The notes: a model not told the origin generated them from the letters alone. A DNA stretch of 64,000 nucleotides from Podarcis liolepis (GCA_965112155.1 OZ218109.1); one strand, 5' to 3'. Shown: positions 10,969-52,741, counted from the stretch's first letter. A program made the numbers and translations.

Positions 10969-10976
10969 ATCTAAAG

Positions 10977-12330: not shown

Positions 12331-14095
12331 TACTGTAGAAACTTCTGGTGATGCAGTCAGACTGCAGGCTGAGTTTCTAATGGAAAGGAACTACTATTAC
12401 AGCTAGAACATACGGAACATGTTAGCATTTTTATATGCAAGAAATCTGGGAAGAAGCAACATTCTTTGGCTCCGTTGCTGTTGCACCTACTAGCTGCTTT
12501 AAAACAGTAAGAGCAATCCAATCCGTAATTTACACCAGTGGCTGCCAACCAGTACCTCCCTTTGTTATTTTCAAAAGGTCTCAGGAAGTTTCCTTTCAAA
12601 AATCTAATGCAGGAGAGTGTTTGCTCTTCCTAGTCAATTTTGTTTACACTGGCTCAGCCTCTCCTAAACTGAACACACCCTTCAACATGACCACATTTCA
12701 TTTGATGCCAGGAATGGATGCCCACGCTTCCATCAGGAGCTGAAAAGAGCTTCACTGTGAGCAAGCATAGCTGTGGCCAGCATAGGTGCTTCCCACTCTC
12801 ACTGATGGGGCAGCTGATGGGAAAGCTTGTCAGCACCATTTTGTGGTCCTCTCTCTCTTTTGCTCTTTAAGATGTGAAGCCATTATGCCCATTATTTTCA
12901 CGGTAACCATTTTAAAACTGGTGCATATGGTGCTATTCCAGCAGGGAATCTAACAACATTTGGAGGGTACCACAGTGGCTACCTGCTATAAACATTAGCT
13001 CACCAGGTTCAGACCAACTGGCAGTGACTGGAAAATTCAAATCTTGGCACACAAGGGAGCATAAAAGTATGAGGTGTGTTCTCATAATGTCAAGCTATAG
13101 TTTGGCATTCCAACTGAATAGTCCCCAAGGCGGTAGGGGAGAGGCCACAGTACAATGGGAGAATTTTTTGGGGGGGGAAATTAAAAATCACGTCTGCATC
13201 CTCTTCTTAGGTATGTAATTTCATGTCTTTATGCATGAGAGAATTACAAGTCCAGGCATGGATTTTATTACAACACTGCTGGCAGGTATACAAGAGTTTT
13301 TAAAATCAGAAATATTTTTCAAGCAGCAAAGGTCTGGAGGGCTCCATGTGTTTAAAAAGACCGGACACAGCCAAGCAATGGTGTTCACTTAAGATGCAGT
13401 CAGAACCAGTAGTGTATTGCTACAGATTAGATTCTTGCGTATTTATCATGGAAGTGAGGCCTAGAAAGATGGTTTTGGGGGGGGGGGGGCGGGTTACAGA
13501 AATCAAATGGGATTTTAGAAATAAAGCCAACAGGAATTTGCTTGTAATGGAAATTACTTCTCTCTTTTCAGAAAAGCTGAAGATAATTCAAAAGCACCTG
13601 AAATACTGCTGCTTGCACCTTTTCAGCTCTTTGTATGTTTGGCTCTTGAAAGAGCAATGCTGACTCCTTGGAATTTAAAATATTTTTTTCCAGCCCTGCT
13701 TTTATGATACACTAAGCATCCCATTTCCGAGCAGTTTAAAATGTCAGTATAAAAAAACCAAGAATTCAGCTTCCTCCACAAAAGCACTAAGTGTTGCAGA
13801 CCCTCTCCATCACCTATTCTATGATTTGAAGCCCATGTTAAGAGATAATGGGACACCACTGTGTCTCACTATTTGAGTGAGCTTCCCCATTGCCCCCACA
13901 CAGGTGGGAAAGCAGAGACTTCCTGTTATGTCTGAAACAGATATGGACGGTATTTCATGAGTATAAAATAAAAAATTGAAGAGAAGGCAAAAGCACAAAA
14001 ACCCCCACAACCCACCACTATATCTGATTCCACTGTTTAGTGGAGATGAATTAAATATCTCTCTCCAAACTTTATACTAATATACATTATCTTAC

Positions 14096-14177: not shown

Positions 14178-14457
14178 CTGAAAGACAAAATAAAACAGCA
14201 TTTTCTTTTAAAAAAGGACATAGAGCATTGCTATTTTTAAAAATCTTATCACACAGCTTGATACTGAGGAGGACATGACAGCTACAATTTGCTAGAAAGG
14301 TATGGATGAGTTTCAAGCCTAAAGAAACAACATGGATACATTGAAACACCACTCTCACTTGTTCTATATCCATTTGGCATTACACTTGTATGTACAAACC
14401 GGAACAGTGATTTAGTTCTTGGCAGCTTCCCAAACTCAAGGACATGGAAAACACTTA

Positions 14458-14982
14458 CCGTATTTTTCGCCCTATAGGACGCACTTTTTCCCCTCCAAAA
14501 ATGAAGGGGAAATGTGTGTGCGTCCTATGGGGTGATTGCAGGCTTTCGCTGAAGCCTGGAGAGCGAGAGGAGTCGGTGCTCCAGGCTTCAGGAGAGCCCC
14601 ACCGCCAGCCCCACAAGCTCTGGAGACAGCGGGGAGGCGGAACGCCGCCATCCCGCTGTCCCCCGACTGGTTTGGAGGCTGGCGGCGGGGAGAAGAGTGC
14701 TTCTCCCTGCCACCAGCCCCACAAGCTCGGGGGACACCGGGGAGGCGCAGCGCACCATCCCGCTGTCTCCCGACGTGGTTTGGAGGCTGCCGGCGGGCTT
14801 CCCCCGACCCCAGCCCCGCAAGCTCCCAGAGCTGCCTGTTCTGGGGGTTGTGGTCGGCGGAAGCTCAGGCTTCCCCCACCCCAGCCCCGCACCTGGGGAG
14901 GGGGAATTTCCTTTATTACCCCCCCAAAAAAAATCTAGGTGCGTCCTATGGGCCAGTGCGTCCTATAGGGCGAAAAATACGG
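14458..14982. mobile_element. Tc2/pogo-like non-autonomous DNA transposon (525 bp, GC-rich)
   Basis: Perfect 28-bp TIR CCGTATTTTTCGCCCTATAGGACGCACT; TA TSD; explains the cluster of spurious ORFs at 14444-15134. Confidence 0.92.
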
Positions 14983-16477
14983 TATTTTATAATAAACCTG
15001 CAGTATTAGCCAATGAATATCCCCCACCGCCCTGTACAAAATCACATTCATTGCTGCATTTGTGTTTGCCTCTGGCCTCACCCACCACTGGCCTGTGGGA
15101 GGTTGTCCAGAATGGAATCTGGTTCCCCAGCTGAAAAAAATGTTCCCCATCCATTTCTAAGCCATACTTTGTTTTAAAACATGGCTTAATCGTGAATGTG
15201 ACTCCTAGCCTACTGTGTGACGCACCCCACCTCTGGTGGGTGCTATGTGCAGCACAAAGCAAGCTATTGTATGGCTTATCAGATCAAGTAAATCTAATTT
15301 GTGTCAAATGTTTGTTATTGGCTTATTTCTAGCTTACCATTCATTTGTATGAAATATGACAAGCCATGTTGTGGCTCGTTTGTGCCACACACAGCATTGT
15401 ACAGAGGTAAGGTCATGTGTTTAAAATCAACTATGGCTTAGCATGACATGCAAACTTAGCTCTTCTGGGGGGGGAAAGGTCACCTGAATCCACTGGCATG
15501 TTAAGACTTTAATCATGAGAAAAAATGGTAAAGAATGGAAGACTAGGTTTCCTTCAGGCTATCTGGAGGATAATATACTTTTGTTCTATATAGGTCTTAA
15601 GGTTTGAGTGTTGACCTCCCAACTTTATGAAAGCATGCATTGTATAAAAAGATCTGTCTATCATCAAAGACAAGAGGTTAATTTATTTACCTACCAGGTC
15701 CAAGAAGATAATGCAACTACATTATAAAAGGATATATTTTTAGTAACATACTTTTCATTGTAAACAATTCAATGTGACTTTGAAAGTCAACGAATATAGA
15801 AGGAGTGTATTTTGTGTCAACTGGAAATGCTAATTTATATTAAAATGTCATGTTAGAAGAATATATGTCTCTCAGAAAATCTGTTCCATGCTGTTTCTCT
15901 GTTCCTATTCTGCTATATTCAGTGCTCCTTTTCAACTTTAAAATGATGCTACAGTGAAAAATGTTAATATAGAGCTTCACAGTCTAAGTGTTGGCTTCAT
16001 TATGACATTTTTATTTTAAAAAATTCTAAAATGACCTTCATCCAGACAGATCCTAGGTAGGTATATAAAAATTATAGTTTAGTGGGCTTACTTGTAAATA
16101 CTGGCATGCAATCCTTAAAAGTTACTTTACCAAGGTATTTGAAACCTTATGCCATATAATTTATAAAACAAAAGATAGGCATCTGTTCAACATATGATTT
16201 TAGAACATATTTGATAGTTCCATTTTCACAAGCACACAAAGGCACTTTGTCACTAACCCTTTTCCATTTAAAAGGAAGGGAACTTCCATTGGTCATTAGG
16301 ACTGATGTCTAATTATTGATTCAAAGAGGAAGAACATTTTTTAAAAAAACTTTAAAAATATCTTTGAGGCATTGCATTCTGAAAACAAGGTCATCTGTAT
16401 CACAGGCCACAACCCATGTATATTATTAATAAGGCAACTAATGGTTAGGAAATGGATTCTGAAAATGGACAACTCAC

Positions 16478-17160: not shown

Positions 17161-18856
17161 GAAAGTAAGCAGTGAACCTTTAATGAGAAGTTGAGACAGC
17201 CGTTTTTCTATGGTATGATATGTTTCAGCATATTAACAAACATAATCAGAACCATGTACTTCCTGCATGCATAAGAATTCAGAGCAGACTACTAGGCACA
17301 TAAACAGCCCAAGTGGACTCCCAGCGTGACAAACACCTGCCTGAAGGTTCCCTCAGCTTTGCTATGATTTGCACCTCTGGTTTCATGTTGCACGATTATT
17401 GCCATGTTGGGAAAAATGATACATAAAGCGGCCCTAATGTTACACCTGAATCAGCACCGATATTTAAAACCCAGTGTTTAAATATTCATGGCATTAAGTC
17501 CCAAATCAGATTGCTGTTGCAGTTTTGGGGCGACAATGCAGAAGAGAGCAAAAAATATGAGTGGCTTCTAGAGGATGTCAACATGCCACACAACATTCCA
17601 GAATGGGCGAGTTGAGATGGAGCCACTTCACTATGCTTTGAGACAATATAAGTTAACTGCCAGCCATTGTTAGAATTTCTATCATGCTTTAAATCTTCTT
17701 CAGGTTGCTTGTCACAAGGTTACAAATTAAGCTTAGAATAATTCCGTTATTAAACTATTTCTCCACCATCACATCAGGTAATTCAGGAATCACCACACTG
17801 CCAATTGCCTTTCAATACATTTGTGAATATTTTATTTATTCTGGAAAACCTTTTCAGTTTGCTTCTAGATATGGTCAAGTTAGCCAATATCTGGGAGGGG
17901 CTCCCTTCCACAGACAAGGCTGGAATCTAAAATTGTGGCTATACCCAAGCCATATAAAGATCCGTTGCAGGTGGAATCCTACTGCACAATATTTTTGACT
18001 AACCATGTATACATAAAATCAGCATTGATTCTTAATCTAAAGCAATCATTCATATTAATCATCTGAACTCCAATAGTATAGATATTAAATGTGGGACAAA
18101 GCAAGGTTTATTATAATTTTTACTTATTCTAACACTAGGGACTAGAACCTTTTGCTATTACGGCTGAACTTCCCTGCAATGCCTTGCATTGTTTAGCAGG
18201 CTCTGGGAAGTGGATAATCTAAATGCACTTGGAAGAGGTTGAGTCTCTCATATGGCTATAGTTACAGCTGCAGTCACTTCAGTGCCAGATCTGCTCAAAT
18301 CCTGGCTTACAAGACATCACTTCCTTTTGCTATTAGAATCTGGACCTCGGCAGACATTTCAGGGGTAAATATTAAACGAAGATACTGTATCTTCGGAAAG
18401 TACATGGATGATATTATGCTAACTACACCAAAACCCATGGAAACAGCTCAAGCAATACAAGAACTTAAACCAACTTTGCCTCTGTCACAGGGTGTGTATT
18501 TCCAAAAAAACTGAGGCAGTATGTGTTCATATCCCTCCTCACACACAAAAATCAGTCAAGAGTTTATTGAATATTAAAATGCATTATGTGAAACTGAAAT
18601 ATCTAGGTATATTTATCACTATAAATTTGAACAGACTGTTCAAAACTAGATATTTTCGTGGTAATTAAAATGGTGACTCTTCCCAAGTTAACATACCCCT
18701 TTCAAGCTCTTCCAGTATGAATATTGCCTGTACAATCATGTCTATGGCAATAGAAATAGAAATGTAATTATTTTATTTTTGAACAATGTAAAATCCATGT
18801 TGGAAAGTTTCTTTATGTGGCCTATCATGACTGGGGCTGGAGAATCCTGAATTGTA

Positions 18857-19164
18857 AAGGTAAAGGTACCCCTGACCGTTAGGTCCAGTTGCGGACGACT
18901 GGGGTTGCGGCGCTCATCTCACTCTATAGGCCGAGGGAGCCGGCGTTTGTCCACAGACAGCTTCAGGGTCATGTGGCCAACATGACTAAGCCGCTTCTGG
19001 CGAAACCAGAGCAGCACACTGAAACACCGTTTACCTTTCCGCCGGAGCAGTACCTATTTATCTACTTTGATGTGCTTTCAAACTGCTAGGTGGGCAGGAG
19101 CTGAGACCGAACAACGGGAGCTCACCCCGTTGCGGGGATTCGAACCACCAACCTTCTGATTGGT
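18857..19164 (-). mobile_element. Sauria SINE, 5'-truncated
   Basis: (ACCTTT)n tail and typical body; 17-bp TSD GAGAATCCT(G/C)AATTGTA at 18840-18856 and 19165-19181. Confidence 0.92.
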
Positions 19165-27590: not shown

Positions 27591-27790
27591 NNNNNNNNNN
27601 NNNNNNNNNNNNNNNNNNNNNNNNNNNNNNNNNNNNNNNNNNNNNNNNNNNNNNNNNNNNNNNNNNNNNNNNNNNNNNNNNNNNNNNNNNNNNNNNNNNN
27701 NNNNNNNNNNNNNNNNNNNNNNNNNNNNNNNNNNNNNNNNNNNNNNNNNNNNNNNNNNNNNNNNNNNNNNNNNNNNNNNNNNNNNNNNNN
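27591..27790. other. Assembly gap (200 N), probably hiding PRKAG2 exon 5
   Basis: Run of N abutting a CpG-rich block; exon 4 (phase 0 out) cannot join exon 6 (phase 1 in) in frame. Confidence 0.9.
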
Positions 27791-28280: not shown

Positions 28281-28394
28281 AGCTGCTGTTGGTATTGTCC
28301 AGTGTGCATTCACCTGCACGGAAAACAGGATGAACCACTGCTCTGGTTCAGGGGAGAAGCTTCATGGTCTTGTGTCCTCCTGCCAGTCACGGCA

Positions 28395-28544
28395 CATAGA
28401 ATTGCAGAGTTAGTAGGGATCCCGAGGGTCATCTAGTCCACCCCCCCCTGCAATGCAGGAATCCTGCCCACAGCTGTCCCTGGGTGGGCTTGAACCGCCA
28501 ACCTTCTGGTTAACAGCCAGGCACACTGACCCATTGTGCCACAG
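28395..28544 (-). mobile_element. tRNA-Asn(GTT)-headed SINE with CR1-LINE 3' tail
   Basis: Minus strand 28544-28475 reads CTGTGGCACAATGGGTCAGTGTGCCTGGCTGTTAACCAGAAGGTTGGCGGTTCAAGCCCACCCAGGGACA (tRNA-Asn-like), then ATTCCTGCATTGCAG...GGACTAGATGACC...ATTCTATG. Confidence 0.85.
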
Positions 28545-28917
28545 TAAGAATGGACTGATTTGTCTGGATCTTAGTTTATCTGCAATATGATCCAGATGTC
28601 AGTTCCTCTCCTCACAGAGCAGGATGCACATTCTACAGATGTGTCGGTGACCCCAGAGTTTGGCAAGCCTACCATAATGCCTGTCCCACCTAACTTGGTT
28701 TTTCACCATCACCCTTCATTATGCGCCCACACATTGTATTCCCATTATCTGGTGTGCAACCTTGCTCGTCTTTTTCAGTTCATCCTCCAGTTGCACAAGA
28801 AGAATGAGATGGAGGTATATTTCTGCCAACCTCCACATTCAGTACACATCACCACAGAACAGATCCCACCCTGTGCACTTGTTGTTAGTCTTCAACCCCC
28901 CAGCAGAGTGCTTAAGG

Positions 28918-29275
28918 CAGGAAGGGGAAAATGTGGCCCTCCGGGTATTGGTCACTCCATCCTGACCACTGGCCGTGCTGGCTAGAGCTGATGGGAAGTC
29001 CAGCAACATCTAGAGCAGGGATAGGCAACCTAAGGCCCGTGGGCCGGATGGGGCCCAATCGGTTTCTAAATCCAGCCCACGGATGGTCTGGGAATCAGCG
29101 TGTTTTTACATGAGTAGAATGTGTGCTTTTATTTAAAATGCATCTCTGGGTTATTTGTGGGGCATAGGAATTCATCAGTTCGGCCCACCACATGGTCTGA
29201 GGGATGGTGGACCAACCCACAGCTGAAAAAGGTTGCTGACCCCTGATCTAGAGGGCAACAGGCTCCCCACCCTTG
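28918..29275. mobile_element. Older hAT-like MITE interrupted by the 29016-29245 element
   Basis: CAGGAAGGGG...CCCCACCCTTG ends; TSD GCTTAAG(G/A) at 28910-28917 and 29276-29283. Confidence 0.65.
29016..29245. mobile_element. hAT MITE (same family as 10711-10968, inverted)
   Basis: Perfect 8-bp TSD ATCTAGAG (29008-29015, 29246-29253). Confidence 0.9.
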
Positions 29276-30478
29276 GCTTAAGAAGCAAATTTATATCGGC
29301 ACAACAGATGCGTATGTTCTTATATTTTTCAACCACTCGTGGGTACATTTAACTTGCTTAAAACTTCTCATGTCCCTCACTGTAAAAGGTATTGGTTCTC
29401 CTGTTTCCATCCCTGGCTCCCCCACTTCCCAACAGTGCATATGGCTTTCCCCCTTAACGTTCAGCAGAGATGCTGAAAGGATTAGGTATCTCTGACAGCA
29501 ATGAACAGCTCCTAAAAGGTAGATACTGCACTTTACAAGTGCATTATTCATACTTTATCTGCTTTATCTCGAAAGGTCCATGGATTAACATGCTTAGTCA
29601 AACAAGTCTTAGAGCTGGGTATAGGCCCAATCTTTAAACTAATTTAAGAAATTAGAGCAAAATAAAAATGGAAAGCTTGTAAGAAAGTCTGGTTCAGAGT
29701 AGACTTTACCTGAATGGGATTTGCACAGTAACTACAAATTAGATTTATATCTTGAAAGAATATGGCACGTTATGCAATTTCATGCTTTCCTACTATTGAA
29801 GTTGGTTTTCTGTGTTTTCAACAGGCAGAATTTTAAGGAGCACAGGAAAAATTCAGAACATTGCTCATCTTTTGTAAGTGCACAGAGTTTATTTTTGAGC
29901 TTATATTATCCACTGCCAAACTTTCAGGCTTTCAGGGAAGTAGATATGCTTAACATAAGGATTCTAAATTTAAATAAGTTTAAATCACACTTCTCAACAT
30001 AACCACACACACAATCTTAACCAAATCCTTGCCTAAATATAAAGGTCTTAGTCTGTATCCAGTGGGTACTTATGCTAGGGTTAGAAGAAGGTGCACCATA
30101 ACTATGGAGTCAATGTGATCAGAACTACTTCACAGACATATTTCTACTTGTATATAAAATCTGACACCTCAATTCCCCCATCTTACTCTTCCACAGTCAG
30201 TCACCTCAAATATGCCTGGGGAGTTGCTGCTTCCATCAATCACCCATTTCCAAATTCTTCCAAAATATTTATAGTCTCACTCAATCCTTATTCAGCCCAC
30301 GGCATCATTCATATTCTTTCACAAGGCAATAGTGTATCTGCAACCAGAACCAAGTAATTGTGGAAGAAAAATGCACAGCTCCCTTTGTCTATGTAGAATT
30401 GGCTCAGGGAGCAAAATTCAGAGACTGTTACTTCAGGAATGTTATCACATACTCTCAGGTTCTGAATGCAGAGTAACT

Positions 30479-30479
<1 letters not shown>

Positions 30480-30526
<47 letters not shown>

Positions 30527-30794
30527 TTTATTTATATCCCGCCCTCCCCAGCCGAAGCCGGGCTCAGGGCGGCTAACAACAATAAAACAGTACAGAACTA
30601 CAACACAACACTCCACTCTAAAATCATTCATTATAAAATTAATTCAAATCAAGCCACTGGCAACCATTGGGCCAGAGCTCTGCGAAGATTGCCGAAGGAG
30701 GGAGTCAGGCTGTGCCCTGGCCAAAGGCCTGGTGGAACAGCTCTGTCTTGCAGGCCCTGCCGAAAGATGTCAAGTCCCGCAGGGCCCTAGTCTC
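30480..30794 (-). mobile_element. L2-type LINE 3' end with (TTA)n tail
   Basis: (TAA)15 on the plus strand; minus strand encodes ETRALRDLTSFGRACKTELFHQAF, typical of an L2 ORF2 C-terminus. Confidence 0.75.
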
Positions 30795-31098
30795 ATACAA
30801 ATTTGTTCTACACACAGAACAGGTCCACATACACTCTGTCCTCTATCTGTTTTTCTGGGATTACTGTTCTAATGCACATGCTTAGTGCACATTTGATAAA
30901 ACCATTAGTTACTTGAAATGACTAAACCTGCAAGCTTAACACAAACATACTCAGAAGTAGCTTTCCTCCACTGAAATAATTCAAGGCAGGAGCTGCAGAA
31001 AAACCACGGTGCAGATCAGCTGAATAAATGATAGGCATATAAAGCAGCAATTCTTGTGGAGCAAGCTTCACAGAACTCAGAGGGACTCATTTTGCATA

Positions 31099-31244
31099 GC
31101 CTGGATAGCTCAGTTGTTTAAAGCAAAGTGCTGATAATGCCAAGGTTACAGGTTTGATCCCCGTAAGGGACAGCTGCTTATTCCTGCATTGCAGAAGGTT
31201 CGACTAGATGATCCTTGTGGTCCCTTCCAACCCTGATTCTATGA
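31099..31244 (+). mobile_element. tRNA-Ile-headed SINE with CR1-LINE 3' tail
   Basis: TAGCTCAGTTGTTTAAAGCAAAGTGCTGATAATGCCAAGGTTACAGGTTTGATCCCCGTA (tRNA-Ile-like, GAT at 31133-31135), then the same ATTCCTGCATTGCAG...GGTCCCTTCCAAC...ATTCTATGA tail. Confidence 0.85.
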
Positions 31245-32620
31245 ATAAGCATGTTTAGGATCTTGCTGCAAGCAGTGCTCAGCCTTATGCAAAACAAGGC
31301 TTTTCAGCAATGCACAGTGGCCAGTGATCTAATTTCTATGTTCTATGAAGTATAAAAAGTCAAGAGCAGGTTTATTGGCTTTTCAGACAAGGTAACAGTT
31401 GCTTTAAGAATAAACATAACTCTTAATACGTTTCTACCTTTCAGAAGACAGCCTGGTCACACTTGATTTATGCAGAGATTCCATCCCTACCCAATACTTG
31501 TCCTTCGAAGCTCATTGGGCAGATACACCAGCCTTAAGAGAGTCCCTTTTATCTTCACACCCCAAAACATGGTTTTCCAGTGTAGTGTTTCAACAACATA
31601 AGCAACCAAACACACAATGCAGGAGACGAGGTTTGCCAGGGTGACCGAAACCTCTCCTGAAAGGTTCCTTCAATTTCACATCTTCCTAACCCCTTCATCT
31701 TTTGCCTGCCAGTTGTCAGTTTGGATCTTAAGGGTCATAACTGTTGTTACACGGTTCCTTAAGTGTTTTTCCTTAGAGAGAGACAGAGCCAGCAATTTCC
31801 TGCAGGGCTCAGATGCTCCCTGAAGCTTCTGTCTGCCACCAGCCACTGAACTTCAATGAGAGTATTCATTTTCCTCGGAAACAGTTCTCTCTCCCCTGCT
31901 GTGCTGTGGCAGCAGATGCCACTGCGGCTTAGGAATGCCCCTGGATGCACAATGCGGCACTTCAAAAGGAGCCATAGTGGCCATGCAGAGAATACAGACT
32001 TTTCTTGAAGTCAGCGCACAGGACAGGAACTACCAAAGCCCAGCAAGTCCCTAAATTAGGAACCTAACAGAATGTTAATTAAAAACAAAAGAGATGTTAG
32101 GCATTCCTCCCGAGCATCAGAATATAATTGCAACTGACGAGACCAGAGCAGAGCAACGGCCCATCTAACTTCAGTATCCAAATCCCAAAAAATGACCAGT
32201 TTCAGAAAGCCCAAGGGAGGGAAATAGGAAACCTATAAAAGATCCCAGGCCAACTCAGCAATTTGTGCTTGCAGAAATAAATCTGCAAGTCATTCTAGTA
32301 CTCGCCAGTCCCACACAGGTATGCTAATAACCCCAGATGCCAAGTCCTTCCAGCATCATTTGTGGCAGAATAATGACTTGAAAGTGAACTTCAAGCTGCA
32401 CCGATAATGACTGCAGAAGAAGCTATTACTCTTTGCAAGACATGAACTGGGAGGTACACTAGTCCAAAGCCACTCTTTTAAAGCAAAAGGAAGTGGTAGC
32501 TGAAACCTGCAGGGAGGAAGTATTTACCATTTATGTTCCTATTCTGCATTTTTGAAAAGCCTCATAAGATTATTGTCAAATGACTAACTTGGATTTGGAT
32601 TTTTTAAAATTCTTGCTGAA

Positions 32621-32674
<54 letters not shown>

Positions 32675-32811
32675 TTATTTATACCCCGCCCATCTGGCTG
32701 GGTTTCCCCAGCCACTCTGGGCGGCTTCCAACAAAATATTAAAATACAGTAATGCATCAAACATTAAAAGCTTCCCTAAACAGGGCTGCCTTCAGATGTC
32801 TTCTAAAAGTC
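32621..32811 (-). mobile_element. L2-type LINE 3' end with (TTA)n tail
   Basis: (AAT)18, then tttatttataccccgcccatctggctggg; colinear with 52382-52741. Confidence 0.78.
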
Positions 32812-33142
32812 ATAACATCACAACTTAAAGCCATGCAGGTGTAATTCCAGTTGCTGCTTCTACTGGGCACACCATAAAAGTTTCATCGGCTCAGTATTAA
32901 TGCAAGCAACCCCAAAACACCCAAGGCTGCATGCAGATGTTCTTGTTCTTGGATCTCCTACTGTGGACTTGCACAATAACATACTAATACATTCAAATTC
33001 CAAGATCAATTTGCTGCCTCACCACAACAGACCAATAGTCACACCCACCCAAACACTTCCTAGTTATGTTCTTTGGGCAGCATAGTATACACTCAGAATG
33101 CTACTTTTCCTAGGCATATGCAATCTGACAAAATGTGGAATA

Positions 33143-33477
33143 CAGTGGTGCCCCGCAAGACGAATGCCTCGCAAGACGGAAAACTCGCTAGACGAAAGAG
33201 TTTTCCGTTTTGGAGGTGCTTCGCAAAACGAATTTCCTATGGGCTTGCTTCGCAAGACGACAATGTCTTGCGAGTTCCTGCTGGTTTTTTTCCTCCCCCC
33301 CCCTTTTTCTAAGCCGCTAAGCCGCTTATCAGCTGATCCGATCAGCAGATAAGCCGCTAAAAGCCGCTAATAGCGCTAATCCTCTAATCCGTCAATGGGC
33401 TTGCTTCGCAAAACGAAAAAACCGCTAGACGAAGAGAATCACAGAACGGATTCTTTTCGTCTTGCGAGGCACCACTG
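33143..33477. mobile_element. Tigger-like MITE, family B
   Basis: TIR CAGTGGTGCC(C/T)CGCAAGACGAA; TA TSD; CpG-rich, so probably young. Confidence 0.88.
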
Positions 33478-33480
33478 TAT

Positions 33481-33646
33481 ATGAAGAAGCCTTGCCATTG
33501 GCCTCATCTTGGATCAGTATGGTCTACACTGATGGGCAGTGGCTCTCTGGGGCTTTTGGAAAGGGGTATTTTCCAGTCTTATGTGGAGGTGCCATGGATT
33601 GAACCTGGGAGCCTCTGCATCGCAAATATGTGCTCTATCACTGAAT
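33481..33646 (-). mobile_element. Degenerate tRNA-Ala-like SINE (same family as 5321-5500)
   Basis: Shares the gtctacact...ggcagtggctctc body and a tRNA-like head. Confidence 0.55.
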
Positions 33647-36600
33647 TCTGTTGCCAGGATGGCATCAGCAGTCTCCATATCTCCAGCTGTCTCTCAAGAT
33701 ACTTCCTATTAAGCAAATAAGGGGCTTGTCCACACCGGACTGGACTGTGAACTTGAGTCCAAGATTTCTGGGAGCCATCCTCAACCAGAACCCAGCCATC
33801 ATTTGTTATTGAGTGAAATTAGATTTCCTCAACCCTGGGAAGATCTGAAAAGCAAAGCAAAACCCAAAACAAATCCACTGGTGCTGTTTGCATTCTCTTC
33901 AGTTAAGGCAGCACCAGAAAGATCTATGCAATCTCAGAGTGAGGTGGGGGCATGGGGGATTGAGAATCTGGAGTTTGTATGCAGAGTGGAAGGTAAAAAA
34001 GGACATTTTTCTCTGCTTCCCCACTTCCAGCCACTTGCTGAAGACTGGAGAAGGGACCCGCATGAGAATATGATGGGAGGGGGAGCATGACTTTGCTTTT
34101 GAAGGCTGATGAAGATTTGTTTGTGGGGCCACCTTAAGCCTTGTTGAACCTTGCAAGTGGTTGGAGCAACATTGAACCGGCTCTGATTTCTGAAACTGTT
34201 ACTAAGCCGTGCATTCATTTTGGGATCCTGCCCTTGTGTGGACCAGTCTGTTGTGTGCACTTGTTACATGTTACATGTGCAATGAGCCTGCACAACATGC
34301 GACTCGTCAGGTTGACTGCAGGCTGCATAATGCAGCAAAAGCTGGTGCTTGACAATTCCTGTAGTACATTCACTTCAGCAGACTGGGCCACATGTGGTGC
34401 AGGCCTAGTGCATACTAAGAGTATTATGAGACACTTCCGCTAATCCTTATGAGAGTCGCTGGGCATAAGAGTCAGACCAAGTTACCCATTCTCATGCCAA
34501 ACCTATTTGGATTAGTTTCATGCTCTCCGATAACCTTGAGATATATATATCTTTCACTTGCTGCATTAATGGTTTCACTGACCTTGTGCAATTGATCTGC
34601 ATTTTGTTGCCAGTGAGGAGACAGTTTCTTGGTACCTGCCTTTAAAGTTGTGTTGTTTGTCAAGGGTTGCAGCTCTCATTACACTGATAAGGCACATTCT
34701 CCATTTCCTGGATTTCTCTGCTGAGGACATCCAGAGCACATTTAGGCCACTCTGATTTTTAAAATATTGATAATTTTAGGAGCGGACTTTGAATACAATG
34801 TTGCCAACATACTGAAGCGCCAAACAAAAAGTGTTAAAGAAATAACAGAGTCTAAGCCACAATTTTCATTATCACAATACTCACGTTAGAGCTATGGATA
34901 GCCGAGTTATATGAAATATGAAAATATAATTGTTTTGCACCAAATGCATTTTACAAAATGCAGGATAAATATAGTCCAGTGCTGTTTCTCTTCTGTGCTT
35001 TCTTTTGGAGCAAGACTGCTTTTATGGTGGAGTTATTACAACCGAGTGTTTGCAATCAAAATGCTGATCCAGGCAAAATCACCACACAATAATACTAACC
35101 CCCACCCAAGGGCTGTTTGAAGTAATAAAATATGGATCAGAATAAAATTAAAGTGCTTCTGTAATGGAAGAATATGAGCTGCAATTCAACTAACTTGAAG
35201 GCCCTGGCTTTTATCCCAAATACTGCTAAGCTTTTGAGTAGGAAATAGAATCCAAAGTACTACATCCTGCAAAGTCTTTTAATTGTGTACCAATACACAA
35301 TGTAGTGTAGTGCCCATGGAAATAAAACTTATACAAGGTTAACAGTTAAAGTTCTCCCCAAAGAATCTTGGGCATCATAGTATTTACGGCAATGCCATTT
35401 ATTCTCTGAAAGCGATAGCTAGCCTTCTTCACAGAAAGTTACTTCACAAGAGTCTTTAGAAAGAGAATGACAAGCTAAACCTGTCTAAGACTATAGTGCA
35501 GATAAGTCCTTGTACGATTATTCACTGCATGGTTAGTCACTGGCAAAAGATCAAGCTTTGATAACATAGCGTATCTTCATTGCATGTTTTGCAAACGGTT
35601 TGCAAAATATCTGTCCAAAACAGAATTTATCTTTATTGCACTAAACAAACAAACAGCACACAAGAACATCCTAGCTATAGAACAAAAGAAAAGGATGAAT
35701 TTGTGCTGCTTTCACCACACTGAAAGTGCTGTTTCTGCACATAATCTGCAGCAAATTCCATGTACATCAGGGTCAAAACAAGCTTGAGGCATGATCCAAT
35801 ACAAGCCCCATAAAGCCAGAACTTCTGAAGACTTTCCCAAACAGAGCTCGCCACAAGGAGACTGAAAACTCACTTGGGGTAGGGGGTGGGAAAGAAAGGT
35901 CTTGCAAATCCAAAGCCATGGATGTCACCCAAAGGTGCTAAGTTGTGTTTCCTCCAACAAAACAAAATCTTAGTTTAATATTGACTCTCAAATGCCAATC
36001 CAAATTTCTTTCAACTGAAGCTGTAACGCAAGCCCAAAATTCTGATACTCACAAGTATTGCTTCCAACTTTATCTCTAATTCAAGTTGCCCATCATAACT
36101 ATTCACTGTGAACTGAGGTTCTGACAGCTAGCAGAAGCATACAGTATATTGCAGCCATTTAGAGAGAAAAGGAATGTGGTTCTTAATTGATCGGTGATGT
36201 GGTAGTGTTGTGTTGTATTATTTATGCAAATTGATTTCCTCTGAAGTTAAATATCTGACTGGGACAAACCTTGTTACGCTGAGCTCGTATTTTGCACAAT
36301 TTGTATACAGTGTCTGTTTGATAATGTGTGGTTTGCTATGCCTAATAAAGGATATTTGATATTAGAAAAGGAATGTGTGCATGGTGGAGAAGCCAGGACT
36401 GCAGACTGCAAAAAGTCCTACCTAGACCCTGCTCTAATCTAAGCCATCAGCAAATCCACCCTTATGTCACCAAGTTCTTCCTCAGGAAGGAAGTTTTGCA
36501 CCACATTCCAGGTTGTACACTCGTACAGCAAATTCACTCATACAATGTACATCATCCTGCCTACATTAGTATCTGCATTTTCAATGTGGCAGTTTTAAAA

Positions 36601-38763
36601 CACTAGGTCTACCTAAAAATTAAGGCATCTCAAGCCAGCAACATGTAAGTACCTCAAATGCAACAATTAAGTACCCCTTTCAGTAGAGAAAAAGTGACAA
36701 AATAATGGGCTCCATATGCTGATATCAGTTATATCCTGTTTGTGTAATATTCTTGCTTTTCAAGGAATGAAAAAGTTGGCGTCTCAACAGACAAAATGAC
36801 TTTCATTTATAACATACAGAATGCACCCAAGCAAATGGTGTTTTGAGTAATTCCAGTGGTTACATATTAATCTGCTATGGCTGGGTAGAGGCTCAAGAAT
36901 CTTGTTTTAAAGCCAGATCCGCATGACAGAGAGTTACTCAAGCACTTCAAGAAGAGCCATGGGTGCCCTTTATTAACAGTTGACCTTCCTTGATACACAA
37001 AACACTTCTTTCAAAAAACCTGTTTCCACCAAAAACACAGAAGCCAATAAACTAATGGCTTCAGCATTATGCTCTAAATATGTCTCTGCAACTAAGAATG
37101 TCATACTAATTTTTAATTTCCCTCCCAGTGCTTCTTAAGAAGTAAACACACACACACACCCCTACCTTTTTTAAAAAAGCTTAACAGACTAAAGTCTAAT
37201 GAGAAGGAATTCCTATCTAAATGCAAATCAAGGTACACCAATCTTGAATGCACAAATAGTTACAAATGGAACTTTTCCCACCATCTGTGAATGAAACATG
37301 CCACAATTTATAGCTTTTGCACATGCTTCCAGTTCTTCTCTCTGAAATAGTCATGTCTAAACCATGGTGCTTCCAACTCAAACTGTGCAAGCCTCAAACC
37401 TTCCTACTGTGTAGGAATATATGCGTTTCAAGTTAAATTGAGAATATATATACTTATTCTTGGATCATCTGGCACTATTGGTTTTGCTCCAGTAAAGTCA
37501 AGAGATGGAGACAAAACAAGGGTGGCTCTTCTGCTCAAATGGCAAAGAAAGTGACTAATGGTTGCACTGCCCAGGTGAACTGGACAGGTGGAGTTATTTT
37601 TGCATTCACTGGCACCAAAGCGGACAGCTTTCGGGCCTTGCAGTGATTCAGCCACTCAGCGGCAGCAGTCATTACAACCTTCTCCTTCCCATCAGCCTGG
37701 CAAACAACAAGCCTTGTATTTTATCTTATTGTACAGGGCTTATTTAAGTCTTGAGGTTGTCTTCAGGATGGAACAGACATAGCATACTAGTGACAGGACT
37801 GGGAAAAAGAAGAAGAAAAAGAAGAAGAAAAAGAAGAGAGTCTTGGGCTAGAAGAGCAGAGGAAGGGTACACATAATCTTGAACTTTTTCCATTGCATAT
37901 CCATTGCTAAACAGCCAAGAAATGTTACATCTGCACTGGCCCAATCAAATCACCGACATTTAGGACACATGCATTTAAGATCCTCTTTACCTTTTGGCTT
38001 ATTATGAGCCTGAAAAAAGCACGTCAGTCAGTCATGAGAAGTGCCATTCCACTTTCCCCTTGAGAAATGAATCAGCTGTCCATCCCAGCGACTGGCCTAA
38101 GGCAGCACTGCAGGCCCTAGCCAGAACTAAGTTAATTGCAAATCTGCCAAAGGGGTGAACCAGGCAGAGCTGATGTTAATGGCTTCTCGGCAGCATAAAG
38201 CAATGGAGCTAATGAGGAAGAGATTCGCAAAAATTGTACCTGGAGACAGGCTTTGTAGAAATATAACTGATTCAAGTGATATAAATTACAATTAATCGTG
38301 TAATCCAGTTTAGGAGGCTGGCAGAGAGTTTTTCCTTTCACTCTGCAACTTGCGGGAGGAAAACGGCCATCTGTTTCATTTATTTAGCAGACGTATTGCA
38401 GGACGTGAGACTCCTTGTTCAAGGGCTCCCTGAACAGATTAGTCCCCCCGTAGTTTATTTTGCAGCGAGTGTAAAATGTCATTCAGTAAAGTACAAAATC
38501 TCTCTTGTGGCTTATATAATGCCTGTGCAGTTGTGGGGTTTGAGAAAAGGTGTGTTAACAGTGCACACGATTATCGGTATAGCAGCCCAAGATACTGTTT
38601 GAGTAGCCAGAATTCACTTATTAATTAAAACCATTTATATACCGCCTTCCATGTAAACATCACAAGACAGTGTGCAAGAATACATTAAGGTAAACAAATT
38701 ACCGTAGTCCTTCAGGTCAAAACAGTTGTATTAAGTAAACTAAGTATTAAGCTAACAAATACA

Positions 38764-38907
38764 GGATAGCTCAATCGGTAGAGCATGAGAATCTTAATCT
38801 CAGGGTCATGGGTTTGAGTCTCAAACTGGCGAAAGATTCCTGCATCGCAGGAGGTTGGACTAGATGACCCTCGTAGTCCCTTCCAATGCTAGAGTTATAT
38901 GATTCTA
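38764..38907 (+). mobile_element. tRNA-Lys(CTT)-headed SINE with CR1-LINE 3' tail
   Basis: TAGCTCAATCGGTAGAGCATGAGAATCTTAATCTCAGGGTCATGGGTTTGAG (tRNA-Lys-like, CTT at 38793-38795), then ATTCCTGCATCGCAG...GGTTGGACTAGATGACC...GATTCTA. Confidence 0.85.
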
Positions 38908-39075
38908 CTTTTGCCGACATTGAAATGCCATCAGTGTCGGCAGCTGCCTTAATTCAGAGGAATCCAAATAGAATGTTTCAGTGTATAACAGTTCTAACAA
39001 GGAAGGCATATACAAAGAGAGGGACAGTTTTGGTTCTGAAACAGATGAAGGGAGCTGGAACTATATCTTTATCTA

Positions 39076-39605
39076 CTGTATTTTTCGCTCTATAGGACGC
39101 ACCTGACCATAGGACGCACCTTGTTTTAGAGGGGGAGAACAAGAAAAAAAAATTCTCCCCCTCTCTGTTCAGTGCCCATTTAGTGAAGCGGCAGGAGAAA
39201 CAGAGCCCCTTCCATTTCTCCTCCCGCTTGGCTGAAGGGGCGCTGCGCAGCTCTCCCTCTCTGCTGAAGCCAGGAGAGTCTTGCTCTCCCGGCTTCAGCA
39301 AAAGGAACCCGAAGCCTTTGGAGAGCAGCGCGAGGTCCCACTGCGCTCCAAAGGCTTCAAGTGGCTATCCCTGAAGCCTGGAGAGCGAGAGGGGTCGGTG
39401 CGCACCAACCCCTCTCGCTCTCCAGGCTTCAGCGAAAGCAACGCAAAGCCTCCGGAGCACAGAGGGAGCGCTCCCTTTGCGCTTCGGAGGCTTCGCGTTG
39501 CTATCGCTGAAGCCAAGGAGCCTGCATTCGCTCCATAGGACACACACACATTTCCCCTTAATTTTTGGAGGGGAAAAGATGCGTCCTATAGAGCGAAAAA
39601 TACAG
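39076..39605. mobile_element. Tc2/pogo-like non-autonomous DNA transposon (530 bp)
   Basis: 26-bp TIR CTGTATTTTTCGCTCTATAGGACGCA; TA TSD; opposite orientation to 14458-14982. Confidence 0.92.
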
Positions 39606-39607
39606 TA

Positions 39608-39646
<39 letters not shown>
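39608..39646. repeat. (TATC)n microsatellite
   Basis: Directly visible, adjoining a MITE. Confidence 0.95.
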
Positions 39647-39724: not shown

Positions 39725-39832
39725 TGGATGGCCATCTGTCATGGATGTTTTAGCTGAGATTCTTGCATTGAAGGGGGTTGGACTAAGTGACCCCCAGGGT
39801 CCCTTCCAACTTTACAATTCTGTGATTCTATG
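39725..39832 (+). mobile_element. CR1 LINE 3' end fragment
   Basis: ggatggccatctgtc...gggtcccttccaac...attctgtgattctatg; no tRNA head. Confidence 0.78.
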
Positions 39833-40266
39833 TGTGTGGGAATTGTTGCAACACATTGCCTAAAATTTAGCCACATTGGTATCAAGCAGACCTCTCCAGC
39901 GAGGGCATTCCAAAACCAACACCTCCATTCCAGGCCTTCTCTTTGGTCACTGTGAATCTTACTCTAGGTCAAGGGTGGGTGACTTGCAACCCTAGGTCCA
40001 CATAGAGCCCTCTAACAAATTTCACACAGTTGGCAAAGTGGGAGGAGAGGGAGAAACTTCTGGTTCTGTGAGGACTAAGGATCAAAGACCATTTCCAAAA
40101 AGCATTACTAAACTAAAATTCCCATGAGTCCTTGGACAGAGCCCTGACAGTTCAGATATTATGTTAATTACCCACCCTTCACCTTAAGGTGCCACGATGG
40201 TTAAAACAATTATATCCATCTGTGGTGCAGACAACCTGCCCATGTCCCAAAGTGTGTTGTATACTA

Positions 40267-40478
40267 CAGTGGTACCTCGGGTTAAGTACTTAATTCGTTC
40301 TGGAGGTCCGTTCTTAACCTGAAACTGTTCTTAACCTGAAGCACCACTTTAGCTAATGGGGCCTCCTGCTGCTGCATGATTTCTGTTCTCATCCTGAAGC
40401 AAAGTTCTTAACCCGAGGTACTATTTCTGGGTTAGCGGAGTCTGTAACCTGAAGCGTATGCAACCCGAGGTACCACTG
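40267..40478. mobile_element. Tigger-like MITE, family A copy 2
   Basis: TIR CAGTGGTACCTCGGGTT; TA TSD. Confidence 0.9.
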
Positions 40479-41536
40479 TACTGTCATACTCCTCAAACCA
40501 CGTATGCACATATATCATTTTAAGGAAATGATCAGTGAAGCATCACTGGAGTGAACTGGGATTAGGCAGAAGTAGCACTTGGCCAAAGGACACACATTCA
40601 GCCAGTCTGCTATAATTGACTAAAGGACTGTAGAGCAAGGCCACATCCCTAGTGCAAAACAATCAAAATTATCAACAGGTTGCTTTTATCCTTGCCCTCA
40701 GTTCCAAATGAAAACATGACAGTGATGAATCTGCAATAATAACTATTTTGTGTTCACATCAGTCATCCAATGCAGAGGAAACATTTTCCAACCCACTGCT
40801 GAGACATTCTCCAATATTATTATGAGTCAGCTGCCCCAAAGCATCTCATTTTCCAGTGGCTAAACCTAGCCTGTTGCAGGTTTTTGCTTTTAGTTTTTAA
40901 GTGCAGACTCTGTTTTTAAAGCAATCTTATGCCTCCTCCTCCACTCCTCCTGGCTTCCCAATGGCTTAGCTGGTGTTGCATTGAGTATGGACAGAGAAGC
41001 AGTCTCCATTGAGCAGGAGCAGGCAGCGAGAGCAAATATTACTGGACAACTTAGGGAAAGCCACCATTTCATTCCCAGTACACGACATCATCTGTGGAAC
41101 GGGGTAATGCACCCTTTTAAAAAATCCAGCAGCTTCGTTCTCCATGTGTAGCTTAGTAACAGAACAATCACAACCGTATCTACTTCAAAGTAGGTCATAC
41201 TGAATTCAATGGGGCTTACCATCAGGTAAGTGGGCTGAGGACTGCAGTCTAAAACACTAAGCTTTGAATCAGCAAGACCTCTGTCATAAACTCTTAAGGG
41301 CTGCTTTGACACTGAGCATTTTTACTTATGGAAGTCACACTTCCTTCACTCTAATTTTCAGAGACATCTGTAGTGATAAAAGCATCCTCCTCCCAGATTT
41401 TCCCTGTTCAGCTTCTTTATTCCTCCAGAGTTCAGAAAAATCTGTTTGTTCTCTTGACATAATGGAACAGCTATGCAATTTCCATCACACAGTTGGTCCA
41501 GCCTATACAGAGCAACAGTGGCCTGAAAAGACCGTA

Positions 41537-41750
41537 CAGTGGTACCTTGGGTTAAGAACTTAATTCGTTCTGGAGGTCCGTTCTTAACCTGAAACTGTTC
41601 TTAACCTGAAGCACCACTTTAGCTAATGGGGCCTTCCGCTGCCGCCGCCGTGTGATTTCTGTTCTCATCCTGAAGCAAAGTTCTTAACCCGAGTTACTAT
41701 TTCTGGGTCAGGTCTGTAACCTGAAGCGTCTGTAACCCGAGGTACCACTG
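41537..41750. mobile_element. Tigger-like MITE, family A copy 3
   Basis: Same TIRs; TA TSD. Confidence 0.9.
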
Positions 41751-41955
41751 TACTGTAGTATGTTTGGAGGGCAGCAGTGGGGGAGAGAGTACTGCACCTT
41801 CTTTCCCTGCCCCTGCACGGTCTAAGTGATGTCCCCCAATAAACATTTGGACTGGGGAAACGTGGGCTGATCACAACAGAATGCAATTTGGATTCCAGAA
41901 GTCTAGATGAGGTTGCTACTGTCCTTCCTGTTTAAAACAGAGGAGCAAAGACTAG

Positions 41956-42211
41956 GCATTGCCTGGAAACAGTCAGGCTGTGCATCCATAGCAGAAGAGG
42001 AATGACTGCTAGAAAGAACAGAGAGAGAAGAAACACTATGCTGCATCTGCAGCAGCACAACCGGGCGCCTTCATCTGCCCCAGCTGCAACAAAACATCTC
42101 TCACCACATCAGTCTCGACAGCCACAGCAGGCACTATAACCTTCCAACAGTTTGACTTCACCCCCAAAGGCAAACTCCTCCAACTGTCTCCTGAGGCAGA
42201 TGGATACCAAC
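41956..42211 (+). mobile_element. RTE-clade LINE 3' fragment (same family as 59083-59470)
   Basis: Reverse-complement similarity, e.g. ttcatctgccccagctgcaacaaaacatctctc. Confidence 0.75.
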
Positions 42212-43278: not shown

Positions 43279-43639
43279 TGAAATATACTCGGAGTCGAGT
43301 GTGGATTTCATGCTCTTTATTTAGCTCATAGTAGTGAGGAATGGAAGTTCCCCAAAAATATCTGCTTTATATACATTATTTATAATGGGCCACACGTGAT
43401 TGGCTACTTCTGGGATTCTCCTGTGGGCCAATCAGGTTGCGGATTCACTCCCACCTGGAGCTGGATTGGGTGGCTCCTGCAGACCAATCACACTGCTGCA
43501 TTGTTCTAGGACCAATCAGACTGCTGCATTCTGGACCCTATTGTTCTAGGACCAATCAGACTGCTGCATTCTGAATCCTATTGTTCTAGGACCAATCAGA
43601 CTGCTGCCTTTTGGACCCTATTCAACTCAGTACATAACA
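43279..43639 (-). mobile_element. Solo LTR (361 bp), Gypsy-like, CCAAT-rich
   Basis: TG...CA; 5-bp TSD ACCTC (43274-43278, 43640-43644); 40-bp tandem repeats, TATATAAA (43366-43373) and AATAAA (43316-43321) in order on the minus strand. Confidence 0.88.
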
Positions 43640-45493: not shown

Positions 45494-45849
45494 GGGGATG
45501 CAGGTGGTGCTGTGGGTTAAACCACAGAGCCTAGGACTTGCTGATCAGAAGGTCGGCGGTTCGAATCCCTGCAACGGGGTGAGCTCCTGTTGCTCGGTCC
45601 CTGCTCCTGCCAACCTAGCAGTTCGAAAGCACGTCAAAGTGCAAGTAGATAAATAGATACCGCTCCAGCAGGAAGGTAAACGGTGTTTCCGTGTGCTGCT
45701 CTGGTTTGCCAGAAGCAGTTTAGTCATGCTGGCTACATGACCCGGAAGCTGTACGCCGGCTCCCTTGGCCAATAAAGCGAGATGAGCGCCGCAACCCCAG
45801 AGTCGGCCACGACTGGACCCAATGGTCAGGGGTCCCTTTACCTTTACCT
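45494..45849 (+). mobile_element. Sauria SINE, full length
   Basis: tRNA-like head with A/B boxes, ACCTTT tail; TSD TACTTTGCAACC at 45482-45493 and 45850-45861. Confidence 0.95.
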
Positions 45850-46265
45850 TACTTTGCAACCAGGAGGTTTGCAAGACAGCATTAAAATTACCTTTAGACA
45901 GGGCAGGTCTCTCACCAGGTTCTGCCATAGTCACTCTGCCCAAGCTTTATCTACTCCAGACATGCCAGACAACAGATCAGCATTAGGGAAGGAGTAGGCA
46001 GGGGCAGCCAGAGCTGCTATGTCATTTTAAAGTTAGAAACCTCTGGTTTGCAACCCTTACCCCAATTGCAAGGATGCCTGTACCAGCTCAGATTTAACAA
46101 GCAACTCTGTCTGCCAGGTTGTTGCATTAAATATATACAGTATATATTGGCTCTGTTCCTGTGCCTTTAACAACAGCCTGACATACAGAAATGCTGCAAG
46201 TAAACCTGCTCCCAGCACTCAGCTTCCACCTGCTTCATTTCTGCTGTTAAAGGCACAGAAACAGA

Positions 46266-46578
46266 GAATCATAGTGGGAAGGGACCCCAAGGGTCATCTA
46301 GTTCAACCCCCTGCAATGCAGGAACCTGGGCTAAAGCATCCTTGACAGATGGCCATCCAATCTCTGCTTAGAAACCTCCAAGGAAGGACAGTCCACCACC
46401 TTTCGTGAGAGTCTGTTCCTCCACTAAACAATTCTTACAATCAGAAATTTTTTCTGATCATTTAGTCGGAATCCCCTTTCTTGCAACTTTAAGCCACTGG
46501 TTCGAGTCCTACCCTCCAGAGCAGGAGTAAACAAGCATGCTTCCTCCTCCATGTGACAGCCCTTAAGATATCTGAAAA
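46266..46578 (-). mobile_element. CR1 LINE 3' fragment
   Basis: Typical CR1 3' end (plus strand gggaagggaccccaagggtcatctagttcaaccccctgcaatgcagg) with upstream ORF2 remnant; abuts a MITE at 46581. Confidence 0.82.
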
Positions 46579-46580
46579 TA

Positions 46581-46822
46581 CAGTGGTACCTCGGGTTAAG
46601 TACTTAATTCGTTCCGGAGGTCCGTACTTAACCTGAAACTGTTCTTAACCTGAAGCACCACTTTAGCTAATGGGGCCTCCTGCTGCCACCGCACCGCTGG
46701 AGCACGGTTTCTGTTCTCATCCTGAAGCAAAGTTCTTAACCTGAGGTAATATTTCTGGGTTAGCGGAGTCTGTAACCTGAAGCATATGTAACCTGAAGTG
46801 TATGTAACCCGAGGTACCACTG
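46581..46822. mobile_element. Tigger-like MITE, family A copy 4
   Basis: Perfect 18-bp TIR CAGTGGTACCTCGGGTTA; TA TSD. Confidence 0.92.
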
Positions 46823-46860
46823 TACAAAGAGACAGAAGCATTTCAGTTTCTGTGGAACTA

Positions 46861-50463: not shown

Positions 50464-50816
50464 GGGGACATGGGTGGCGCTGCGGGTTGAACCACAGAAC
50501 CGATCAGAAGGTCGGCGGTTCGAATCCCCGCGATGGGGTAAGCTCCCGTTGCTCAGTCCATGCTTCTGCCAACCAAGCAGTTTGAAAGCACGCCAAAGGG
50601 CAAGTAGATAAATAGGTACCGCTCTGGCGGGAAGGTAAACGGCGTTTCCGTGCGCTGCTCTGGTTCGCCAGAAGCGGCTTAGTCATGCTGGCCACATGAC
50701 CCGGAAGCTGTATGCCGGCTCCTTCGGCCAATAAAGTGGGATGAGCGCCGCAACCCTAGAGTCGGCCACGACTGGACCTAATGGTCAGGGGTCCCTTTAC
50801 CTTTACCGTTACCTTT
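50464..50816 (+). mobile_element. Sauria SINE, near full length
   Basis: Colinear with 45494-45849; small deletion in the head. Confidence 0.93.
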
Positions 50817-50865
50817 AGAAAGGTCTGACATAAGGTTTTCACATGGCCAGAGGTGGAGGTTGATC

Positions 50866-51067
50866 ACATCTGGAAAAACTTTCTGGCAGCAAGAACTGTT
50901 TGACAGTGGAACTGTCTCCCTCAGGAGGTTGTGGACTCTCCTTCCATTTATGTTTCTAAGCAGAGATTGGATGGCCATCTGTCAAGGATGCTTTAGCTGA
51001 GGTTCCTGCATTGCAGGGGCTTGGACTAGATGACCTTTGGGGTCTCTTCCAACTCTACAATTCTCTG
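50866..51067 (+). mobile_element. CR1 LINE 3' fragment
   Basis: cagtggaac...gttgtggactctccttcc...ggatggccatctgtc...ttcctgcattgcagggg...ttccaactctacaattct. Confidence 0.82.
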
Positions 51068-52381: not shown

Positions 52382-52741
52382 TAATAATAATAATAATAAT
52401 AATTTATTATTTATAGCCCACCCCTCTGGCTGGGTTTCCCCAACCACTCTGGGCGGCTTCCAACAGGACACTAAAATACAATAACCTATAAAACATTAAA
52501 AGCTTCCCTAAAGAGGGCTGCCTTCAGATGTCTTCTAGAAATTTGGTAGTTATTTTTCTCTTTGACATCTGGTTCGAGGGCGTTCCACAGGGCGGGTGCC
52601 ACTACCGAGAAGGCCCTCTGCCTGGTTCCCTGTAACTTGGCTACTCGCAGCAAGGGAACCGCCAGAAGGCCCTCAGCGCTGGACCTCAGTGTCTGGGCTG
52701 AACGATGGGGGTGGAGATGCTCCTTCAGGTATACTGGACCG
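52382..52741 (-). mobile_element. L2-type LINE 3' fragment
   Basis: (TAA)n tail; minus strand encodes RAFSVVAPALWNAL, an L2 ORF2 C-terminal motif. Confidence 0.8.

Follow-up and report, generated by a model that had tools for sequence, protein, structure and literature searches.

The 64,000-nt stretch of Podarcis liolepis DNA analyzed here (the window) contains three SINE copies of 146 to 155 nt, each with a tRNA-derived head joined to the 3' UTR tail of a CR1-type LINE, and three headless CR1 ends. The parts of these elements, in order of position, are as follows.

28395 to 28461, minus strand: CR1 3' UTR tail of the Asn element, terminating in one ATTCTATG unit
28462 to 28474, minus strand: 13-nt linker of the Asn element, containing part of an 11-nt word at 28471 to 28481
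28475 to 28548, minus strand: tRNA-Asn(GTT)-derived head; A box with 0 and B box with 0 mismatches; acceptor stem with 5 of 7 pairs
31099 to 31172, plus strand: tRNA-Ile-derived head with anticodon GAT; A box with 0 mismatches and B box with 1 mismatch; acceptor stem with 3 of 7 pairs
31173 to 31244, plus strand: 8-nt linker and CR1 3' UTR tail of the Ile element, terminating in ATTCTATG
38760 to 38831, plus strand: tRNA-Lys(CTT)-like head; A box with 0 and B box with 2 mismatches; 5' end decayed or truncated
38832 to 38907, plus strand: 5-nt linker and CR1 3' UTR tail of the Lys element, terminating in two degenerate repeat units
39725 to 39832, plus strand: headless, 5'-truncated CR1 end; ORF2 stop TAG at 39751 to 39753, followed by the 3' UTR
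46258 to 46573, minus strand: headless CR1 end with the last 80 codons of ORF2, including one internal stop; ORF2 stop at 46331 to 46333
50873 to 51067, plus strand: headless CR1 end; ORF2 stop TAG at 50994 to 50996, 6 nt before the start of the shared tail

The three headed elements lie where the original prediction had placed them, and the anticodons that it had read are present at the same positions: GTT at 28512 to 28514 (minus strand), GAT at 31133 to 31135, and CTT at 38793 to 38795. The A box and B box mismatches were scored against motifs that we take to be the consensus. The acceptor stem of the Lys head, like that of the Ile head, retains 3 of 7 pairs. The heads have 1 or 2 remaining CpG and no internal TTTT, and a downstream T run lies 70 nt away from the Asn element, 57 nt from the Ile element, and 2 nt from the Lys element. 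CCA is absent after the discriminator base in all three. A search for target-site duplications around the three elements gave best matches of 5 to 6 nt that do not flank the elements, and none for the Lys element; the copies are 8 to 12% from the tail majority. The linker between the end of the tRNA sequence and the start of TTCCTGCA is 13 nt in the Asn element, 8 nt in the Ile element, and 5 nt in the Lys element. It had been claimed that all three heads join the tail at about the same point; each join is indeed within ~7 nt of the CR1 ORF2 stop codon, but with linkers of unequal length the joins are not identical. The chance that a tRNA-like match ends within 15 nt upstream of 3 of the 6 tails is ~1e-8 or less. 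We consider it highly probable that these are copies of SINEs and that their CR1 3' UTR tails carry tRNA heads of three distinct kinds.

An HMM trained on four tails and run on the 64-kb window finds exactly six tails, three on the headed elements and three on the headless CR1 ends, which bears out the claim that these six share a common 3' module. Over 50 columns, the SINE tails are 76 to 86% identical to the three CR1 ends and 80 to 88% identical to each other. The SINE tails differ from the tail majority at 4 to 6 of 50 columns and the CR1 copies at 3 to 6 of 50, and because these distances are similar, SINE tails and CR1 copies are of similar age. All tails terminate in ATTCTRTG-like units, and ATTCTRTG is the amniote CR1 microsatellite (PMC5729268). 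Two consensus stem-loops are predicted in the tail, with a compensatory change at 0 of 20 pairs. When folding was compared with that of shuffled sequences, z-scores ranged from -2.67 to +0.43, and 2 of the 6 tails were clearly better.

The open 49-residue part of the CR1 fragment at 46258 to 46573 has 52 phmmer relatives, with E values up to 0.001. RVT_1 is present in 3 of the 7 relatives that were scanned, the source names of 3 of the 4 that were looked up are Anolis or Varanus, and 13 of 51 (one hit without coordinates was left out) end within 2 residues of the stop in the window. From this shared end and the presence of RVT_1, we conclude that the headless fragments code for the C-terminal part of an RT protein and that the TAG at 50994 to 50996 is the ORF2 stop. 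Since the shared tail begins 6 nt past this stop, the SINEs carry almost exactly the CR1 3' UTR. Just upstream of the ORF2 stop, CR1 has a purine-rich word that resembles a tRNA 3' end.

The heads were compared with natural tRNAs by several methods. ARAGORN calls only the first head, as tRNA-Asn at 28473 to 28549. The Rfam tRNA model RF00005 gives 42.8 bits for the Asn head and 33.9 bits for the Lys head, and just 17.2 bits (E = 0.68) for the Ile head, which is under the gathering score of 29. Reference tRNAs were taken from viral contigs and were retrieved with one motif from the anticodon arm of each head. The Asn motif retrieved tRNA-Asn(GTT) at 16 of 16 loci and the Ile motif tRNA-Ile(AAT) at 9 of 9, while the Lys motif retrieved tRNA-Lys(CTT) at 1 of 49 loci; the other 48, which have no Lys tRNA call, are probably chance matches. 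Measured against 22 distinct natural tRNAs, of which only two are Lys references, identity to the head's own isotype versus other isotypes is 0.79 versus 0.61 for Asn, 0.73 versus 0.66 for Ile, and 0.76 versus 0.62 for Lys. This whole-head comparison is partly circular because the references were retrieved with motifs from the heads themselves; outside the retrieval motifs, the values are 0.79 versus 0.62 for Asn, 0.75 versus 0.67 for Ile, and 0.67 versus 0.63 for Lys. When the D arm and T arm are counted separately, the Asn head alone separates clearly from other isotypes. The Ile head ties with Lys in both arms (17 versus 17 of 20 in the D arm and 12 versus 12 of 16 in the T arm), and the Lys head ties in the D arm (18 versus 18 of 20) and loses in the T arm (10 versus 12 of 16).

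Compared by eye, the Ile head agrees with that of the bird SINE ApalSINE1 at 47 of 59 core positions, and about half of the differences are CpG decay (PMC8044555, Table S2). A 10-nt match by which the 5' end of the Ile head resembles Lys was set aside, since it is mostly A box and the Ile head of the bird PeleSINE1 starts alike (by eye). Judged from sequence, the first head can be assigned firmly to tRNA-Asn and the second well to tRNA-Ile. The third would be assigned to tRNA-Lys on the basis of its anticodon arm, the two references, and a likeness to vertebrate tRNA-Lys(CTT) that we presume. As sources of the G in the Ile anticodon, an Ile(GAT) gene, an inosine read as G, and a later transition are all possible.

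Pairwise identity among the three heads is 53 to 57%, and the medians between different natural tRNA isotypes are 59 to 64%. The original prediction that there are three different tRNA heads is thus upheld by their low mutual identity and by each being closest to its own isotype, but the Lys identity is weak outside the anticodon arm. The identity values bear on whether all three could belong to a single family in which the anticodon drifted, as it did in ApalSINE1 of the trogon. A single SINE can mimic about ten anticodons (PMC8044555), and with the distant references used here, Ile and Lys are inseparable outside the anticodon arm, which would be in keeping with drift. However, the heads differ over their full length and the tails are far more alike (80 to 88%). 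Heads that are 53 to 57% identical are therefore not those of one drifting family, and this explanation, which we regard as very improbable, is largely refuted.

Each head type is present as one copy in the window, and the collections scanned yielded no second copy, which is what would be expected if the elements were one-off chimeric retrocopies of a tRNA and a CR1 end that were never amplified. Yet 3 of the 6 CR1-type ends are headed (interval, 12 to 88%), and the headed copies are joined nearly at one point, unlike the three true CR1 fragments, which are truncated to differing lengths (~110, ~195, and >315 nt). Headed ends seem too common for one-off products, so we infer multicopy families and consider one-off chimeras improbable. 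By extrapolation from density, there would be ~69,000 headed copies per 1.475 Gb (95% interval, 14,000 to 200,000). The probability of three different heads in three draws is 0.22 if there are three equal families and <0.05 if one family makes up at least 80% of copies. The density thus points to three or more families that are similar in size. Among 24 listed sequencing runs, 14 (from 5 studies and 7 coded organisms) contain at least half of the words of 28300 to 38299, and no RNA run is among those listed as containing them. Pattern scans for a B box and tail in viral and metagenome collections returned 3 viral and 30 metagenome loci; the full tail is present in 0 of these 33, and they are therefore chance matches. 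The elements are most likely old, decayed copies of CR1-dependent tRNA SINEs of at least three families, for which we infer both the copy number and mobilization by CR1.

The sequences at the joins indicate how the three elements may be related. An 11-nt word that spans the join is identical in the Asn element (28471 to 28481) and the Ile element (31166 to 31176), a match that is reached in 0 of 5,000 shuffles, and the longest word common to SINE and CR1 in the same 30 nt is 6 nt. In the 30 nt that lead up to the tail, the Lys element shares a word of at most 4 nt with Asn (reached in 4,506 of 5,000 shuffles) and of at most 7 nt with Ile (116 of 5,000 shuffles). By eye, two bases of the 11-nt word depart from the Ile-type end of TguSINE1 and match the Asn element. 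Together with an acceptor stem of 3 of 7 pairs in the Ile head versus 5 of 7 in the Asn head, these two bases fit a graft, within the 3' acceptor strand, of an Ile head to a SINE of the Asn type. We favor a mixed origin, in which the Asn and Ile elements would derive from one event with head replacement and the Lys element would be separate, and consider this an evenly balanced call.

The last 5 nt of the 11-nt word coincide with the CR1 stop codon, and because the CR1 stop and the word upstream of it resemble the Asn/Ile word, two switches that occurred separately at the same microhomology could look like common descent. All three elements might, then, be independent families, each born by its own template switch from CR1 to a tRNA at a hotspot at the ORF2 stop, with no swap of heads. 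In agreement with this, 0 of the 50 core tail columns unite the three SINEs against the three CR1 copies (a comparison of single decayed copies, which has low power), the linkers are unequal in length, and CR1 itself has the tRNA-3'-end-like word just upstream of its stop. In a tail tree of 6 rows and 65 columns, which is weak, the Ile tail pairs with the CR1 copy at 46266 (97/95) and not with the Asn or Lys tail, and the three SINEs do not group. The Asn and Ile tails are also the least alike SINE pair (40 of 50). What speaks against independent births is that the Asn and Ile elements share an exact 11-nt word, compared with 6 nt at most for SINE and CR1, and we regard three separate births as rather unlikely.

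The original prediction was of a single SINE lineage that kept its tail and swapped heads repeatedly to give all three elements. The three joins fall close to one CR1 position, the Asn and Ile elements share their junction word, the Ile and Lys tails have in common two states that are absent from the three CR1 copies, and head switching has a precedent in passerines (PMC5729268). However, no state is common to the three SINEs and absent from CR1, and the junction words of the Lys element are short. The prediction is partly supported: a junction signal that would fit a swap is seen in the Asn and Ile pair only, and the extension to all three elements in one lineage is unlikely.

A cycle for such elements can be proposed by analogy with tRNA SINEs, in which Pol III transcribes from the head, CR1 ORF2 recognizes the 3' stem-loop and repeat, and the RNA is copied by target-primed reverse transcription (PMC7983390, PMC5729268). 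Pol III would start at the A and B boxes of the head, transcribe through the CR1 3' UTR, and terminate at the downstream T run; the CR1 ORF2 protein would bind the predicted tail stem-loop beside the ATTCTRTG repeat and insert a copy of the RNA at a new site by target-primed reverse transcription. As for origin, template switching has been proposed for the birth of PittSINE (PMC5729268). Here, reverse transcriptase on CR1 RNA would complete the 3' UTR, reach about the ORF2 stop, which is at the foot of the predicted first tail hairpin, and there jump to a tRNA template. Under the mixed origin that we favor, the Asn and Ile families would have come from one such switch, with the head probably replaced later inside the 3' acceptor strand, and the Lys family would probably have had a separate origin.

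CR1-tailed tRNA SINEs have been described from other sauropsids. A close parallel is in passerine birds, in which TguSINE1 (Ile) gave rise to PittSINE (Asp) by a head switch (Suh et al. 2017; PMC5729268). As in the window, a tRNA head sits directly on a CR1 3' end with an ATTCTRTG repeat and a hairpin (a predicted one in the window), and different heads occur on one tail, Ile and Asp in the birds and three heads, including Asn and Lys, in the lizard. In contrast, TguSINE1 and PittSINE are tied by four diagnostic tail bases, and none ties all three elements here; the bird tails, compared by eye, lack the TTCCTGCA hairpin that is predicted in the lizard tails; and the birds have about 2,000 to 2,500 copies per genome, compared with tens of thousands by extrapolation here. 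PeleSINE1 of the pelican and ApalSINE1 of the trogon, which arose in separate bird lineages (Ottenburghs et al. 2021; PMC8044555), also have tRNA-Ile heads (AAT and GAT) and tails ending in ATTCTATG, but both are avian, and the numerous anticodons of ApalSINE1 represent variation on a single Ile-like head and do not come from distinct tRNAs. Two further likenesses are by description only. The tortoise PolIII/SINE has a tRNA-Lys head and a CR1 partner, PsCR1 (PMC3747384), but is found in turtles and has a single head, and tuaCR1-SINE1a/b is a CR1-mobilized tRNA-like SINE with over 10,000 copies in the tuatara, which is a lepidosaur (PMC7116210, bioRxiv 867069).

We found no CR1-tailed tRNA SINE of lizards or snakes in the literature searched; Repbase, Dfam, and SINEBase lie outside that literature and may list them. 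Excerpts of further papers (PMC3531059, PMC5381603, PMC10670947, PMC5786205, PMC11303007, PMC7397244, PMC9498476) do not mention a squamate CR1-SINE. The SINEs that are described from squamates, Sauria/Squam1, Squam2, and Squam3, are tRNA related and 190 to 350 nt long, with bodies (PMC10702118, PMC7983390, PMC13295347). Sauria has a Bov-B tail, and Squam3 has a CORE domain and an L2 tail, whereas the elements here are ~150 nt, bodyless, and CR1 tailed. Identity with Sauria/Squam1 was rejected, as this requires ~350 nt and a Bov-B-derived end with ACCTTT repeats. Squam3, which has a CORE domain and an L2 end within 218 to 239 nt (PMC7983390), was also rejected because linkers of 5 to 13 nt leave no space for a body and the end is that of CR1. 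The elements most likely belong to a known class of SINE, as new members from squamates.

The principle of a tRNA head on a CR1 tail is already known, and the novelty of head swapping is lowered by its description on a CR1 tail in birds (PMC5729268); the points of note are the coexistence of three heads and the join at the ORF2 stop. The fullest reading, which we advance tentatively and consider doubtful, is of an uncatalogued, bodyless SINE set of high copy number (tens of thousands), in which an exact CR1 3' UTR is paired with at least three tRNAs, both by template switching at a hotspot at the ORF2 stop and by head exchange inside the acceptor stem, the families coexisting in one genome. 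If that reading is true, these SINEs would be a natural series in which to ask which tRNAs can found SINEs and whether the template is the mature, edited tRNA (G34 in the Ile anticodon could be inosine read as G). If the families are real and abundant, a class missing from squamate repeat libraries would be gained; in one lacertid genome, roughly half of all repeats lack a classification (PMC9498476). Such families would also raise the apparent number of tRNA genes and provide presence/absence markers. With three heads in one genome, de novo birth of SINEs and head swap could be tested directly against each other, for which birds offer one pair.

The window also contains other repeats. Five copies of up to ~350 nt, 75 to 92% identical, are Sauria/Squam1-like:

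18854 to 19164, 45503 to 45855, 50472 to 50817, 55131 to 55480, and 56733 to 57013: Sauria/Squam1-like copies

One of the Sauria-like copies ends in ACCTTT repeats, which are the Sauria SINE end (PMC13295347) and mark the DNA as that of a squamate. The copy at 50472 to 50810 is ~60 nt upstream of the CR1 end at 50873. The Asn head at 28492 to 28508 (minus strand) is identical at 17 of 17 nt to a Sauria SINE head at 55420 to 55436 (minus strand), and over these positions it departs from natural tRNA-Asn toward the Sauria state. This identity may reflect chance, a common origin from tRNA-Asn, or conversion. A fourth tRNA-like head, at 5434 to 5505 (minus strand), scores 31.6 bits with Rfam, has the anticodon TGC, and is followed by ~170 nt of non-CR1 body. 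It is probably Squam2, a name that we give on the assumption that Squam2 is derived from tRNA-Ala.

A MITE-like element that has terminal inverted repeats as well as internal palindromes is present in two copies (39071 to 39610 and 14456 to 14984). Rfam microRNA matches near 39371 to 39604 were rejected, as they are under gathering scores and lie inside this palindromic repeat. A repeat of 210 to 250 nt is present in four copies that are 86 to 91% identical (12098 to 12333, 40258 to 40484, 41535 to 41756, and 46575 to 46825), the last of which directly adjoins the CR1 fragment ending at 46573. Unclassified interspersed repeats with two copies each are at 53921 to 54277 and 58597 to 58965, 10704 to 10973 and 29011 to 29252, 41970 to 42211 and 59089 to 59335, and 32650 to 32808 and 52382 to 52540. 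There is a 200-base assembly gap at 27591 to 27790, ~600 nt from the Asn element, and a tandem repeat at 43482 to 43622 consists of ~3 copies of a 40-nt unit with 92% matches.
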